Assembly: GCA_007116995.1 (NCBI GenBank) | Contig: SKHL01000030.1 | Span: 11,525 to 75,524, forward strand | Direction of reading: 5' to 3' | DNA length: 64,000 bases | Source: Limnochordia bacterium | Lineage (GTDB): Bacteria; Bacillota; Limnochordia; Darwinibacteriales; DTU012 | Shown here: positions 15,054 to 55,245 of the stretch, piece by piece | How positions within the stretch are numbered: the first letter of the stretch is position 1 | Layout of the letters: each line of letters begins with the position of its first letter | The notes under the pieces: model-generated | Seen by the model: the letters and a program-made list of their open reading frames with translations, nothing else | Databases searched by the model: none | Told to the model about the DNA's origin: nothing | Position numbers and translations under genes: made by a program

Positions 15054-15353
15054 TTATTTAAAAATAGTTGGAATATTTGTCTTCCACTCACTAAAGTCTG
15101 AGTCCGGATTCACCATAGTATACGTGATAGTTACTGTATACAAGATACTCCTATCAATTATAATATGAGAAAGTGATAAGTCAATCAAACTTACCACATA
15201 CGCATCTACCCTCTGCTGTAAAAAGTCATTCACTTTCTCTATTAATCCATCTAAATTAGACTCAGAATTACCATCCAAAGGCTGACTTTCCTGTATAATC
15301 TCAACTAGAACCCCTGTCACCCGACACACCCCCCGCACTCCAGCACATACCAC
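15054..15353 (-). CDS. Hypothetical protein
   Basis: 99-aa ORF; no domain. Confidence 0.4.
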   Translation of the reverse strand: MVCAGVRGVCRVTGVLVEIIQESQPLDGNSESNLDGLIEKVNDFLQQRVDAYVVSLIDLSLSHIIIDRSILYTVTITYTMVNPDSDFSEWKTNIPTIFK

Positions 15354-15694
15354 TCCGAAAAACTTAAAACATCACAGTCAATTAAATCTTCAGTATCTCC
15401 ACATAAGAAACCTAGTAAATACTTCCGATACAAATTATACGAATCAGCTAGTTCCACTAAAAAATCACCATGACACGCACTAGGGCTACACCAGCATCCC
15501 AACACCTTACCCTCTAACTCCTGTATAGAATCCATTAACTCATCCTGACCAAGTACCCAAACTTTATACTTTTCAATGACCTGATCCCGAGTACCATGAA
15601 CACCAATCGAAAACGGATTACCCCACTTAGACGGTCTCCCTATATACACATCATACTTCGACTTTTTAAAATGAACGACTCTATCCATACACAA
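15317..15694 (-). CDS. DUF4326-like small protein
   Basis: YDVYIGRPSKWGNPF...KVLGCWCSPSACHGDFL matches, from memory, the conserved blocks of the DUF4326 family found in phages and bacteria (G-R-P-x-x-W-G-N-P-F and G-C-W-C-x-P-x-x-C-H-G-D). Confidence 0.5.
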   Translation of the reverse strand: MCMDRVVHFKKSKYDVYIGRPSKWGNPFSIGVHGTRDQVIEKYKVWVLGQDELMDSIQELEGKVLGCWCSPSACHGDFLVELADSYNLYRKYLLGFLCGDTEDLIDCDVLSFSEWYVLECGGCVG

Positions 15695-15741: not shown

Positions 15742-15758
15742 CTTATATACGGAAAAAA
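15742..15758 (-). promoter_or_regulatory. CCGTATATA-class motif upstream of the DUF4326-like gene
   Basis: TTTTTTCCGTATATAAGGG following hairpin AAGTGGTT-GATTTT-AACCACTT. Confidence 0.5.
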
Positions 15759-29699: not shown

Positions 29700-29788
29700 T
29701 GGCAGAAAGGGTGTGATTCGAACCCACGGAGGCTACTAACCCCAACGATTTTCAAGACCGTCCCAATCGTCCACTCTGGCACCTTTCT
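29700..29788 (-). tRNA. tRNA-Ser (anticodon UGA), type II with long variable arm
   Basis: Manual fold of the minus strand: acceptor AGAAAGG/CCTTTCT, 3-bp D stem, anticodon stem ACGGT/ATCGT with loop CTTGAAA (U33, anticodon TGA, A37), long variable arm GGGG...CCTC, T arm GTGGG-TTCGAAT-CACAC, discriminator G, encoded CCA. Confidence 0.7.
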
Positions 29789-29800
29789 GTGAATACGAAA

Positions 29801-29878
29801 TGGCGTGCCTGGTAGGACTCGAACCTACGACACCGAGCTTAGAAGGCTCGTGCTACTATCCAACTGAGCTACAGGCAC
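29801..29878 (-). tRNA. tRNA-Arg (anticodon UCU)
   Basis: Minus strand GTGCCTG TA GCTC...anticodon stem CGAGC/GCTCG loop CTTCTAA (anticodon TCT)...T arm GTAGG-TTCGAGT-CCTAC, acceptor CAGGCAC, G, CCA. 78 nt. Confidence 0.8.
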
Positions 29879-48629: not shown

Positions 48630-49031
48630 CTATAACAACTTCAGATCTCCCGTTATCTTATCAATCTTCGAACTCAAATGAGGTCCAACCGCAACCGCAG
48701 TATATGTAGGCTCCTTAAACTCCGTCAAACCCATATCTTGAACTATAGAACACGGTAGGGCGTTGTTACACGCTCTACGATAAACAATGAACAATTCCTC
48801 TTCACTGTCTACACTCACAACTACCTTCTTACATAACCCCTGAATCCACTCCATCATATAGGGTAGACTTTCGGTTGATATCATACCGACCTCAGACCCT
48901 AACCAGTCCCCAACACCTACTCTATCTGTTAAAACCATCAAAGAAGCATGTGCCCCCTGAGCAATCATCTTACCCTTCCTCATATTTAAGTCCTTACGAA
49001 CTACGATTACTTGTTTGATATCATCCATCAC
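48630..49031 (-). CDS. Peptidyl-tRNA hydrolase, PTH2 type
   Basis: KQVIVVRKDLNMRKGKMIAQGAHASL closely parallels the PTH2 signature [25 protein letters not shown], with a C-terminal TAVAVGP block. Confidence 0.8.
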   Translation of the reverse strand: MMDDIKQVIVVRKDLNMRKGKMIAQGAHASLMVLTDRVGVGDWLGSEVGMISTESLPYMMEWIQGLCKKVVVSVDSEEELFIVYRRACNNALPCSIVQDMGLTEFKEPTYTAVAVGPHLSSKIDKITGDLKLL

Positions 49032-53310: not shown

Positions 53311-53538
53311 TTACCTCCCTCTCAATTTCCTACCTAGTAACGTAAAACCCACCCAAATCATGAATCCAGTAGCCGAGTAAATCACCATACATATAACCAC
53401 CAGTAAAGTGATATTAAAACACTGTTCCGCAGTCAGATAGTCACGATAAAGTAAGTAAACCGTGATAGTAGTCAACACCTGTAAAATAACAAGACCAAAA
53501 ATCTCCTTACTCCAGATACTCCTTAGATATTCCCTCAC
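53311..53538 (-). CDS. Small membrane protein
   Basis: 75 aa, two hydrophobic helices. Confidence 0.4.
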   Translation of the reverse strand: MREYLRSIWSKEIFGLVILQVLTTITVYLLYRDYLTAEQCFNITLLVVICMVIYSATGFMIWVGFTLLGRKLRGR

Positions 53539-53939
53539 CGTAACTCCTTCCTAACTCTCATTAACAACTTACCCAGTCTATTCTCCCCTACCCCATTACA
53601 CTGACCCCAGTATGTATCTCCCCAATAATTATCTTCAACAATTTCTATGTCTCCTGTTTTAAGTAATAGATCCCTTAATTTTTCATTACCAAATTTCTGT
53701 TTCAAAAGAAGATACATAATGTCCTCTTTTACTTCTTCCCAATCTTCCCTTAAAACCAACTTACGACCCAATCTCTTACAGTGACCCGGAGTAGAACTCC
53801 GAAACTGATACCATAAAGACTTATCTTTTGTCTTTGAACACTGATACGCATTTTCTACTGTAGGAAATACGTACCCACAAATACATACCTCACTAGGGTA
53901 GAAGTTGGATAGAAAATTATACTCGTCTCTGAAATACAT
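53535..53939 (-). CDS. NADAR-domain protein (YbiA/DUF1768-like N-glycosidase / ADP-ribose-processing fold)
   Basis: FYPSEVCICGYVFPTVENAYQCSKT...PGHCKRLGRKLVLREDWEEVKEDIMYLLLKQKFGNEKLRDLLLKTGDIEIVEDNYWGDTYWGQCNGVGENRLGKLLMRVR follows the NADAR block order (FSNF.P, E+.+Q.K, P...K.LGR, R.DW...K...M......KF, L..TG...LVE, WG.G..G.G.N.LG..LM..R). Confidence 0.7.
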   Translation of the reverse strand: MYFRDEYNFLSNFYPSEVCICGYVFPTVENAYQCSKTKDKSLWYQFRSSTPGHCKRLGRKLVLREDWEEVKEDIMYLLLKQKFGNEKLRDLLLKTGDIEIVEDNYWGDTYWGQCNGVGENRLGKLLMRVRKELR

Positions 53940-53970
53940 ATCGTCCCCCCCCCTAACATATCTCCTACAC

Positions 53971-53990
53971 CTACCTATACGGAAAAAAGA
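53971..53990 (-). promoter_or_regulatory. CCGTATAGG motif upstream of the NADAR gene
   Basis: CTTTTTTCCGTATAGGTAGG about 30 nt before ATG 53939; after hairpin 53989-54012. Confidence 0.45.
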
Positions 53991-54012
53991 GACCGACCAT
54001 CAGACCGGTCTC
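53989..54012 (-). terminator. Hairpin terminator after gene 54000-54326
   Basis: GAGACCGGTC-TGATGGT-CGGTCTC then TTTTTT. Confidence 0.5.
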
Positions 54013-54326
54013 CAAATATCTGACCAATGTTCCCCTGTCTCCTCACCCCACTGACTTCTAGGGGCAAGTTCCTGACCCGAGAAATTGAAATCCAGACCAC
54101 ATTCACATGTATTCGTGAAGTTACGACATTCGACCTCTTCACCACAATCACATGTAACAACCACAATCACCTTACTGTGAGTAACTGTCATACCCTCCGG
54201 AACACTGTCCTCATAGTTCTCCTGAAACGAATGGGCTTTTTCCAAGTCACTACACTTCACACTATACTCCCTAAACTCATCAAAACTAGAATCCGCCGCA
54301 AAAACCTCAACAAGATACTTCTTCAT
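54000..54326 (-). CDS. Cys-rich hypothetical protein
   Basis: 108 aa with CDCGEEVEC...CEC. Confidence 0.4.
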   Translation of the reverse strand: MKKYLVEVFAADSSFDEFREYSVKCSDLEKAHSFQENYEDSVPEGMTVTHSKVIVVVTCDCGEEVECRNFTNTCECGLDFNFSGQELAPRSQWGEETGEHWSDIWRPV

Positions 54327-54966: not shown

Positions 54967-55245
54967 TTACTTTGTTTCGAAGTGTTTTTTTAGTTCTTTC
55001 TCACATCCCTTACACAGAAAAGTATCCTCAAACCCAATCTCCACTCTCTCCAATTTATCTAATTCATCTCCCTGTAACCCGCAAACAGCACAGCTTGTAC
55101 CCTCTTTTCTCAAAATAATAGAATCCTCATTAACATGAATAGAAATCGCATCTCCCTCCCGAATCTTGAACACTTTTCGTATCTCTTTAGGGATAACAAT
55201 TCTACCTAAATCATCAATCCGTCTTACAATTCCTGTCGATCTCAT
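54967..55245 (-). CDS. AbrB/SpoVT/MazE-family swapped-hairpin DNA-binding protein with C-terminal Cys pairs
   Basis: The N-terminus TGIVRRIDDLGRIVIPKEIRKVFKIREGDAISIHVNEDSIILRK is the AbrB-N signature, followed by CAVCG...CKGCE. Confidence 0.6.
   Translation of the reverse strand: MRSTGIVRRIDDLGRIVIPKEIRKVFKIREGDAISIHVNEDSIILRKEGTSCAVCGLQGDELDKLERVEIGFEDTFLCKGCEKELKKHFETK

Follow-up and report, generated by a model that had tools for sequence, protein, structure and literature searches.

The 64,000-nucleotide stretch of phage DNA analysed here (the window) encodes a NADAR protein that, judged by its sequence and modelled fold, is very probably a functional, stand-alone N-glycosidase of the short YbiA-like type. 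On balance we favour the reading that it acts for the phage as an orphan, antitoxin-like DNA ADP-ribosylglycohydrolase directed against DarT1-type host toxins. By sequence comparison, its closest experimentally characterized relative is NADAR-Bas32, a validated anti-DarTG1 enzyme. The analysis establishes the gene, the fold of its product, the active-site residues, the selection acting upon it and its homology to known proteins.

Identification and fold of the NADAR protein

The genes and signals discussed below are collected in Table 1. The earlier note had read a 134-aa ORF as carrying the NADAR blocks, and this is borne out by the ORF itself and by its matches to PF08719, PHROG 1017 and YbiA. 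The Pfam NADAR family PF08719 is matched with E = 5.4e-26 and 92.2 bits (cut-off 35.1). Profile positions 8–163 of 163 are covered, so that the whole domain is present above the gathering threshold. The match to PHROG 1017 has E = 7e-41. Two solved structures are matched by sequence, E. coli YbiA (2b3w, E = 1.6e-18) and the NADAR of Phytophthora nicotianae (PnNADAR; 8bau, E = 6e-5). A database protein identical to the window NADAR (P0241) is found on a 122.5-kb NCBI/ENA contig, as is P0121, the identical counterpart of the DUF4326 protein discussed below.

An AlphaFold2 model calculated with a 50-sequence alignment has a mean pLDDT of 94.8 and a pTM of 0.89. In Foldseek comparisons the model superimposes on YbiA 2b3w with TM 0.87, an rmsd of 2.0 Å and 37% identity, and on the complex of PnNADAR with ADP-ribose (8bau) with TM 0.84; the search of the PDB gave no significant match beyond these two. 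The model has the YbiA fold, with an alpha-helical core between two small beta-sheets. Modelling against characterized NADARs had been proposed as a check in the earlier note; it confirms the fold, and the catalytic Glu and Lys and the acidic residue E102 are present by alignment.

Table 1. Positions of the NADAR and DUF4326 genes of the window and of the features associated with them
Feature	Position	Strand	Remarks
NADAR CDS	53535..53939	(-)	134 aa; ATG start; stand-alone, YbiA-type
75-aa ORF	53311..53538	(-)	GTG start; two hydrophobic (putative transmembrane) stretches; from ORF list and sequence
Purine-rich (G-rich) Shine-Dalgarno-like run (AGGGGGGGGG)	53945..53954	(-)	5 nt before NADAR ATG; read from sequence
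CCGTATA motif (CCGTATAGG), candidate promoter element	53974..53982 (7-mer 53976..53982)	(-)	36 nt before NADAR ATG
Terminator-like hairpin with T-run	53988..54013	(-)	11 bp, 6 GC pairs; promoter/terminator scan
DUF4326 CDS	15317..15688	(-)	123 aa; ATG at 15688; alternative TTG at 15694
CCGTATA motif after weak hairpin and T-run	15746..15752	(-)	~58 nt ahead of DUF4326 start

The active site and its subfamily

The residues of PnNADAR that hold the ADP-ribose or catalyse guanine de-ADP-ribosylation are E43, K50, R79, W89, R93, E125, D130 and W133 (Schuller et al., PMC11543638). We mapped these onto the window protein through a HMMER alignment to 8bau (chain numbering offset +2), taking the role of each residue from PMC11543638. 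E43 and K50 correspond to E29 and K36 of the window protein, R79 and W89 to R59 and W67, R93 to K71, E125 to E102, and D130 and W133 to D108 and W111. All eight positions carry the same or an equivalent residue, the single replacement being K71 for R93. Across 50 homologues seven of these positions do not vary, the exception being R59, which the list of conserved columns does not include. In a multiple alignment E29 and K36 also coincide with E36 and K43 of T4 AdfN, and mutation of these AdfN residues abolishes its counter-defence activity (PMC11257639).

The third acidic position differs between subfamilies, being Glu in the YbiA subfamily, Asp in the BC4488/DarT1-linked NADARs and His in the NADARs of T4-like phages (PMC11543638). 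E102 of the window protein is the counterpart, by alignment, of E125 in 8bau and of the Glu in the YbiA sequence LVEHTEND, and is invariant across the clade. The NCBIfam model TIGR02464 (riboflavin intermediates N-glycosidase) is passed, with 84.7 bits against a cut-off of 73.7. There is no match to the AdfN/gp30.3 family PF08010 at E≤0.1; with this, the lack of a significant BLASTP match to AdfN and the retention of the Glu, membership of the AdfN family is ruled out.

The window NADAR starts 8 residues ahead of the FLSNF block and is a minimal NADAR core. Because of this short leader it lacks the basic N-terminal extension of the DarG1-type antitoxins. Nor does it belong with the DarG1 antitoxins in other respects, having neither an adjacent DarT1 gene nor the catalytic Asp. 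Against the NCBIfam model 'NADAR family anti-phage protein' DS32_2 it scores 49 bits, far under the cut-off of 240 bits, and PADLOC returned only a weak match, to the candidate-system model PDC-M42C.

Genomic context and selection

All coding in the window is on the minus strand, with 124 ORFs of at least 60 aa that take up 86% of the sequence. Genes of replication and nucleotide metabolism comprise those for an SSB, a clamp-loader-like AAA protein, a Dda/RecD-like helicase, a Toprim protein, RNase H, a dUTPase, thymidine kinase, a nucleoside deoxyribosyltransferase-like protein and a DHH protein. Others encode a peptide deformylase, PTH2, a Sigma70_r2 protein and an SLT protein, and there are two tRNAs. 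The phage is unusual in its extreme strand asymmetry and its recurrent terminator–CCGTATA units. Megablast of the 51–56 kb region against 50,697 GenBank phage genomes found no match. The Dda-like helicase is 40% identical to that of Bacillus AR9/PBS1 and to helicases of Listeria and Enterococcus phages, a weak hint from sequence that the host may belong to the Bacillota.

The neighbours of the NADAR gene are small ORFs without Pfam family assignment, except for a calcineurin-like metallophosphoesterase and an AbrB/MazE-like protein. The window ORFs that were scanned against Pfam gave no hit below E = 1e-4 to an ART, DarT, Macro, SLOG, Nudix, KptA or RNA ligase domain, and the same scan found no NAD-salvage gene. 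With no ART or DarT domain in the window, the NADAR is an orphan and not one half of a toxin–antitoxin pair; a phage-borne DarT–NADAR pair is ruled out for the ORFs scanned.

An orthologue of the gene is present on an independent 7.9-kb ENA contig (L001), with 89% amino-acid and 82.5% nucleotide identity. The two share the gene order AbrB/MazE-like, NADAR, small ORF, metallophosphatase, methylase-like. By Nei–Gojobori counting the two NADAR genes give dN 0.084 and dS 1.10, a dN/dS of 0.076. This indicates that the gene is under strong purifying selection, and the ratio rules out a pseudogene or decayed copy.

The start of the 75-aa ORF overlaps the NADAR stop by 4 nt and its Shine–Dalgarno sequence sits within the NADAR 3′ end, so the two are probably co-translated. 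The corresponding ORF of L001, of 54 aa, overlaps its NADAR by an identical 4 nt. No Pfam family was found for the 75-aa ORF.

The CCGTATA motif

The window contains 28 copies of the sequence CCGTATA, where 7.1 ± 2.4 are expected from 100 dinucleotide-preserving shuffles; none of the shuffles reached 28. Twenty-two of the copies are on the coding strand. Most copies follow a T-run, often with a hairpin before it, and lie 20–60 nt ahead of a start codon. Extended, the motif reads TTTTT-CCGTATA-(T/G)A. At the NADAR gene the terminator-like hairpin closes the upstream gene, and its T-tail runs directly into CCGTATAGG. The same order of hairpin, T-run, CCGTATA, Shine–Dalgarno sequence and ATG precedes the NADAR gene of L001, despite the saturation of synonymous sites between the two (dS ~1.1). 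CCGTATA is a real, conserved signal at gene starts. A scan for promoters found none of the sigma-70 type on the coding strand upstream of NADAR. It had been proposed earlier that the gene is expressed from its own CCGTATA-motif promoter; the motif is there and is enriched, and it is plausible as a promoter, perhaps one read by the Sigma70_r2 protein that the phage encodes.

Relationship to characterized NADARs and a probable role in counter-defence

NADARs are antitoxins of DarT1 that hydrolyse guanine-ADPr (PMC11543638), and the statement of the earlier note that members of the family reverse guanine ADP-ribosylation by DarT toxins is correct. All four E. coli-associated subtypes, YbiA and T4 gp30.3 included, remove G-ADPr in vitro and do not remove T-ADPr, but only some of the subtypes protect cells from DarT1 (PMC11125620). 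E. coli YbiA is active on G-ADPr in vitro, yet does not rescue DarT1 toxicity in cells (PMC11125620). YbiA-type NADARs also act on cytidine-ADPr, and the ART YarT has a YbiA-like protein as its antitoxin (PMC11125620, PMC12945103). Three phage proteins have been shown to defeat DarTG1 by taking ADP-ribose off guanine in DNA, namely T4 AdfN and the two unrelated phage NADARs NADAR-Bas32 and NADAR-Bas60 (Johannesman et al., PMC11257639). NADAR-Bas32 restores the plaquing of DarTG1-sensitive phages and neutralizes DarT1, the latter also without phage (PMC11257639). The suggestion that a phage NADAR can be an anti-DarT factor therefore holds for these three proteins, and by analogy may extend to the window phage.

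We located NADAR-Bas32 as bas32_0066 (QXV80247.1) of Escherichia phage IrisVonRoten (MZ501075, Markadamsvirinae). The window NADAR is 46.7% identical to it along its full length, over 137 aligned positions (E = 3e-41). Both are short, stand-alone NADARs of large lytic phages (149 aa for NADAR-Bas32 against 134 aa), sharing the E/K/E catalytic set and the WGD..WG and G.N.LG blocks, and neither has an N-terminal extension or an adjacent toxin. They differ in that the phage lineage and host of NADAR-Bas32 are unrelated to the window phage, and in that NADAR-Bas32, with 66 bits, is under the TIGR02464 cut-off that the window protein exceeds with 85 bits.

The other characterized proteins are more distant in one respect or another. 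E. coli YbiA has the same fold, 38.7% identity (BLASTP) and the Glu at the E125-equivalent position, and passes TIGR02464 as the window protein does. On the other hand its gene is chromosomal and in a LexA-controlled operon, the protein is 26 aa longer at the N-terminus and it gives no protection against DarT1 in vivo (PMC11125620). T4 AdfN (gp30.3) shares superfamily and proposed role with the window NADAR, and its essential E36 and K43 are equivalent to E29 and K36. It is, however, only ~23% identical in a multiple alignment and finds no significant BLASTP match in the window protein; AdfN belongs to PF08010, has a His at the third acidic position and acts preferentially on hydroxymethylated T-even DNA. 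DarG1 and the other DarT1-associated NADARs of the BC4488 subfamily share the fold and the guanine de-ADP-ribosylation reaction, an activity that is predicted for the window protein. Unlike the latter, DarG1 is encoded beside DarT1, carries a basic N-terminal extension and, where YbiA-type proteins have Glu, has an Asp (D171 in E. coli C7).

A mechanism can be proposed from these relationships. The NADAR would be made during infection from its own transcription unit. The ADP-ribosyl group would be bound via R59, W67, K71, D108 and W111, and E29, K36 and E102 would serve to hydrolyse the N-glycosidic bond that joins the distal ribose to the nucleobase amine. The target would likely be the N2 of guanine, possibly cytosine too, and the products free ADP-ribose and the restored base. 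As an orphan, antitoxin-like counter-defence, the enzyme would strip from the replicating phage DNA the ADP-ribose placed there by DarT1-type or other guanine-directed host ADP-ribosyltransferases, so that replication could proceed. The in vivo substrate and the defence countered are proposed by analogy with NADAR-Bas32 and AdfN.

We put this no higher than probable on balance because sequence does not reveal specificity in vivo, the failure of YbiA in cells being a case in point, and because soluble ADP-ribose derivatives have been argued to be the substrates of many phage NADARs (PMC9503650). Some properties of the protein also stand against it. The TIGR02464 cut-off is passed, and identity is 39% to YbiA, which fails to rescue cells from DarT1. 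There is no positively charged N-terminal extension, the proposed binder of ssDNA in DarT1-linked NADARs (PMC11543638); this absence is tempered by NADAR-Bas32 and AdfN, which lack it too. Lastly, the neighbours of homologues in other viral contigs are genes of tRNA/RNA repair and NAD salvage, and not defence-related.

NADAR genes in other phages and possible alternative substrates

How general are such proteins in phages? At a query coverage of at least 80%, tblastn finds NADAR homologues in 665 GenBank phage records, including Staphylococcus K-like, Streptomyces, Vibrio, T5-like, PBS1/AR9 and Klebsiella phages, and IMG/VR holds at least 575 further homologues. To look at their neighbourhood we took 80 IMG/VR loci centred on NADAR homologues and scanned one gene on each side, 137 proteins in all, against Pfam. 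The most frequent families were PTH2 and a SLOG family (three of the 137 each) and Thg1, CCA/poly(A) polymerase and NUDIX (two each), with single occurrences of PNKP ligase, NAD synthase and NAPRTase. No family exceeds three among the 137 flanking genes, and a conserved operon partner of NADAR is ruled out.

Some of these neighbours bear on a different substrate. From context-based work it has been proposed that many or most phage NADARs act on soluble ADP-ribose derivatives (Iyer et al. 2022, PMC9503650). The window NADAR would then cleave N-ribosyl bonds in soluble metabolites and not in DNA, the candidates being ADP-ribose-derived immune signals or toxic products (cADPR variants) or, as for YbiA, reactive intermediates of the riboflavin pathway. 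In favour of this reading are the contextual argument of PMC9503650, the sporadic SLOG, NUDIX, NAD synthase and NAPRTase neighbours in other phages, the score above the curated TIGR02464 cut-off and the possession of the YbiA-type Glu (E102) without a DNA-binding extension. Yet NADAR-Bas32, the closest homologue to have been tested, acts on DNA and counters DarTG1 (PMC11257639), the Pfam scan found no SLOG, Macro, Nudix or NAD-salvage gene in the window, and riboflavin damage control would seem to have no obvious value to a lytic phage. We consider a small-molecule substrate unlikely, if not negligibly so.

The PTH2, Thg1, CCA/poly(A) polymerase and PNKP ligase neighbours point instead towards RNA. 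Here the enzyme would remove the ADP-ribose that host toxins (YarT/Tre23-like or pierisin-like ARTs) attach to bases of RNA or tRNA, or it would clear ADP-ribose by-products of tRNA repair. The window itself has two tRNAs, and a PTH2-like ORF (48633–49031), 4.5 kb downstream of the NADAR gene, that is homologous to the PTH2 neighbours; moreover YarT has a YbiA-like antitoxin, and cytidine-ADPr is a substrate of YbiA-type NADARs (PMC11125620, PMC12945103). Nevertheless each neighbour family is found at most three times among the 137 proteins, so that there is no conserved operon, and neither RNA ligase nor KptA was found in the window by the Pfam scan. An RNA-directed role is in our view rather improbable. 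Such scattered links leave some room for the small-molecule and RNA-repair readings but give them no preference over counter-defence, which is experimentally grounded.

The DUF4326 protein and its relation to NADAR

A second small protein, recognized in the earlier note at 15317–15694 as DUF4326-like, is a genuine member of that family (PF14216, E = 1.9e-27, 96.2 bits against a cut-off of 25) and matches PHROG 464. The ATG at 15688 is probably the true start, as judged from P0121, the identical protein in the database, which is 123 aa long. The domain occupies residues 1–83 and is followed by a 40-aa helical tail. The protein conforms to the family motifs GRPxKWGNPF ... GCWCxPxxCHGD; its own motifs GRPSKWGNPF and GCWCSPSACHGD are invariant in 48 homologues, the invariant columns being R18, P19, W22, G23, N24, P25, C65, C67, C72, H73, G74 and D75. 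It therefore resembles the other members of the family (T4-like NrdA.1, PHROG 464) in having the whole domain with all its invariant residues, and differs in the C-terminal tail, which is shared only with its closest relative, P0122. An AlphaFold2 model has a pLDDT of 86.9. Its structural matches in BFVD are all DUF4326 proteins, and neither Foldseek nor profile search found a solved relative. Homologues are present in 1800 of the 50,697 phage records (3.6%), including T4-like, phi92 and Vi01-like phages.

The earlier note had tentatively grouped DUF4326 with domains related to NAD and ADP-ribose, and this is correct: it is found fused to SLOG, Macro, NADAR, replication and restriction–modification components (Iyer, Burroughs, Aravind et al.; PMC7824862, PMC9503650). 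It has been proposed to be a rhodanese-phosphatase-like enzyme acting on ribose-linked phosphates (PMC9503650). The two proteins of the window might thus belong to one pathway in which, for example, NADAR frees ADP-ribose and DUF4326 processes the ribose-linked phosphate. This is made concrete by P0024, a 224-aa DUF4326–NADAR fusion on a 70-kb viral contig, with 58% identity to the window DUF4326 and 55% to the window NADAR, and with a SLOG-like gene two genes downstream. BFVD holds further proteins, of giant viruses and a Vibrio phage, in which DUF4326 is fused to NADAR or SLOG, in keeping with the reported fusions (PMC7824862, PMC9503650), although fusion proteins are rare. The CCGTATA motif also stands before both window genes, but it is common to 22 genes.

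The genomic evidence is against such a module. In the window the two genes are 38 kb apart, and that for DUF4326 lies within the replication module (Toprim, 3′-5′ exonuclease, RNase H). Of 80 viral loci with NADAR, an HMM search found 3 in which DUF4326 is no more than 10 kb away, a proportion about equal to its genome-wide frequency of 3.6% in phages, which rules out a conserved NADAR–DUF4326 neighbourhood. Most NADAR phages are without DUF4326; the most numerous NADAR carriers are Staphylococcus phages (193 records) and Streptomyces phages (125), genera that are absent from the top DUF4326 groups. The Bas32 genome gave no match to DUF4326 in the 50 kb that include its NADAR gene, and NADAR-Bas32 works when expressed alone (PMC11257639). 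The partnership raised in the earlier note thus has a fusion that matches both proteins on its side, and against it the distance of 38 kb, the 3 of 80 loci and the Staphylococcus and Streptomyces NADAR phages that mostly lack DUF4326. It is improbable that NADAR has an obligate partner in the DUF4326 protein, and we give little credence to a two-enzyme module. Equally slight is the chance that the two proteins correspond to a single two-domain enzyme, split here but fused in P0024 and in giant viruses, and that together they reverse or recycle nucleic-acid ADP-ribosylation.

Implications

Read as counter-defence, the window NADAR would be a further example of the known anti-DarTG1 strategy, backed by experiments on a 47%-identical homologue. 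The overall picture is unchanged, both the mechanism and the role in counter-defence having been published in 2023–2024. It adds one more uncultured lineage of large phages, distantly related to the jumbo phages of Bacillota, that carries an orphan NADAR, and its presence here is consistent with phages being under widespread pressure from nucleic-acid ADP-ribosylation.

The wider value may lie with DUF4326, a very common viral domain for which no member has a demonstrated activity. The P0024 fusion, whose halves match both proteins of the window, provides a concrete NADAR/DUF4326 pair. If the split-enzyme reading were true, it would give a first function, in counter-defence or in ADP-ribose processing, to a family that is present in some 1800 phages and includes NrdA.1 of T4.

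Genes flanking NADAR

In the window, a 75-aa ORF opens with a GTG that has a 4-nt overlap with the stop codon of NADAR, and its strong SD (AGGAAGGAG) lies within the 3′ end of the NADAR gene. An identical 4-nt overlap on the NADAR stop is made by a 54-aa ORF in the related contig L001. The 75-aa ORF may be a translationally coupled partner of NADAR. The AbrB/MazE-type gene upstream of NADAR is also conserved in L001; no toxin partner was seen for the window protein. The window PTH2 is homologous (30–41% identity) to direct neighbours of NADAR in three IMG/VR contigs. Other genes adjoin NADAR sporadically in the IMG/VR contigs, namely those for Thg1, CCA-adding enzyme, PNKP ligase, SLOG, NUDIX, NAD synthase and NAPRTase.

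Coordinates of features in the window and in contigs carrying NADAR homologues
Feature	Sequence	Position	Strand
75-aa ORF, two hydrophobic stretches, putative transmembrane	Window	53311-53538	-
AbrB/MazE-type (SpoVT) DNA-binding protein, 92 aa, Cys-rich C-terminal tail	Window	54967-55245	-
PTH2-type peptidyl-tRNA hydrolase	Window	48633-49031	-
PTH2 adjoining NADAR	L018	9840-10220	
PTH2 adjoining NADAR	L034	10590-10997	
PTH2 adjoining NADAR	L075	10461-10847	
Helical C-terminal extension of DUF4326 protein	Window	15317-15440	
DUF4326-NADAR fusion	L002	8001-8675	
Sigma70_r2 protein	Window	within 383-38536	
Nucleoside 2-deoxyribosyltransferase-like protein (PF15891), dUTPase, DHH/DHHA1 phosphoesterase	Window	within 383-38536	
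Thymidine kinase (other half)	Window	within 38580-63846	
tRNA-Ser(TGA) and tRNA-Arg(TCT), adjoining pair	Window	29700-29878	-
CCGTATA sites (n = 22), e.g.	Window	7639, 15752, 25636, 28861, 32369, 45885, 51721, 53982, 58155	-

A repeated upstream unit

A unit comprising a hairpin, a T-run and CCGTATA(T/G)A is repeated through the window, immediately 5′ of genes. CCGTATA occurs 28 times, compared with 7.1 expected from shuffled sequence, and the unit is kept 5′ of three genes in L001 even though synonymous divergence is saturated. It may be a promoter read by the phage's own Sigma70_r2 protein; alternatively, the hairpin, T-run and motif may together be a piece of a composite terminator.

The DUF4326 protein and DNA chemistry

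The window DUF4326 protein ends in a helical extension of 40 aa that is missing from most of about 5,800 homologues (typically 83–95 aa in size); the only other bearer is its closest relative, P0122 (69% identity). In the 70-kb Logan viral contig L002 the DUF4326-NADAR fusion is followed within two genes by that of a SLOG-like protein, beyond which lie a gene for a DNA polymerase of family A and one resembling that of a 5-hmdU DNA kinase (HMUDK_hel). This gene content suggests a phage with hypermodified thymidine.

The window itself is strikingly asymmetric. All of its ORFs (1-64000) are carried by the minus strand, the coding strand is very poor in C (11.2%, against 28.3% G), and the GC skew lies between -0.37 and -0.49 across all 4-kb blocks. 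L001 (1-7888) is similarly C-poor, at 10.9%. The asymmetry of the window far exceeds ordinary skew from replication or transcription, and DNA modification or deamination pressure could be its source. Taken with the nucleotide-metabolism genes, it could reflect a non-canonical DNA chemistry in the window phage.
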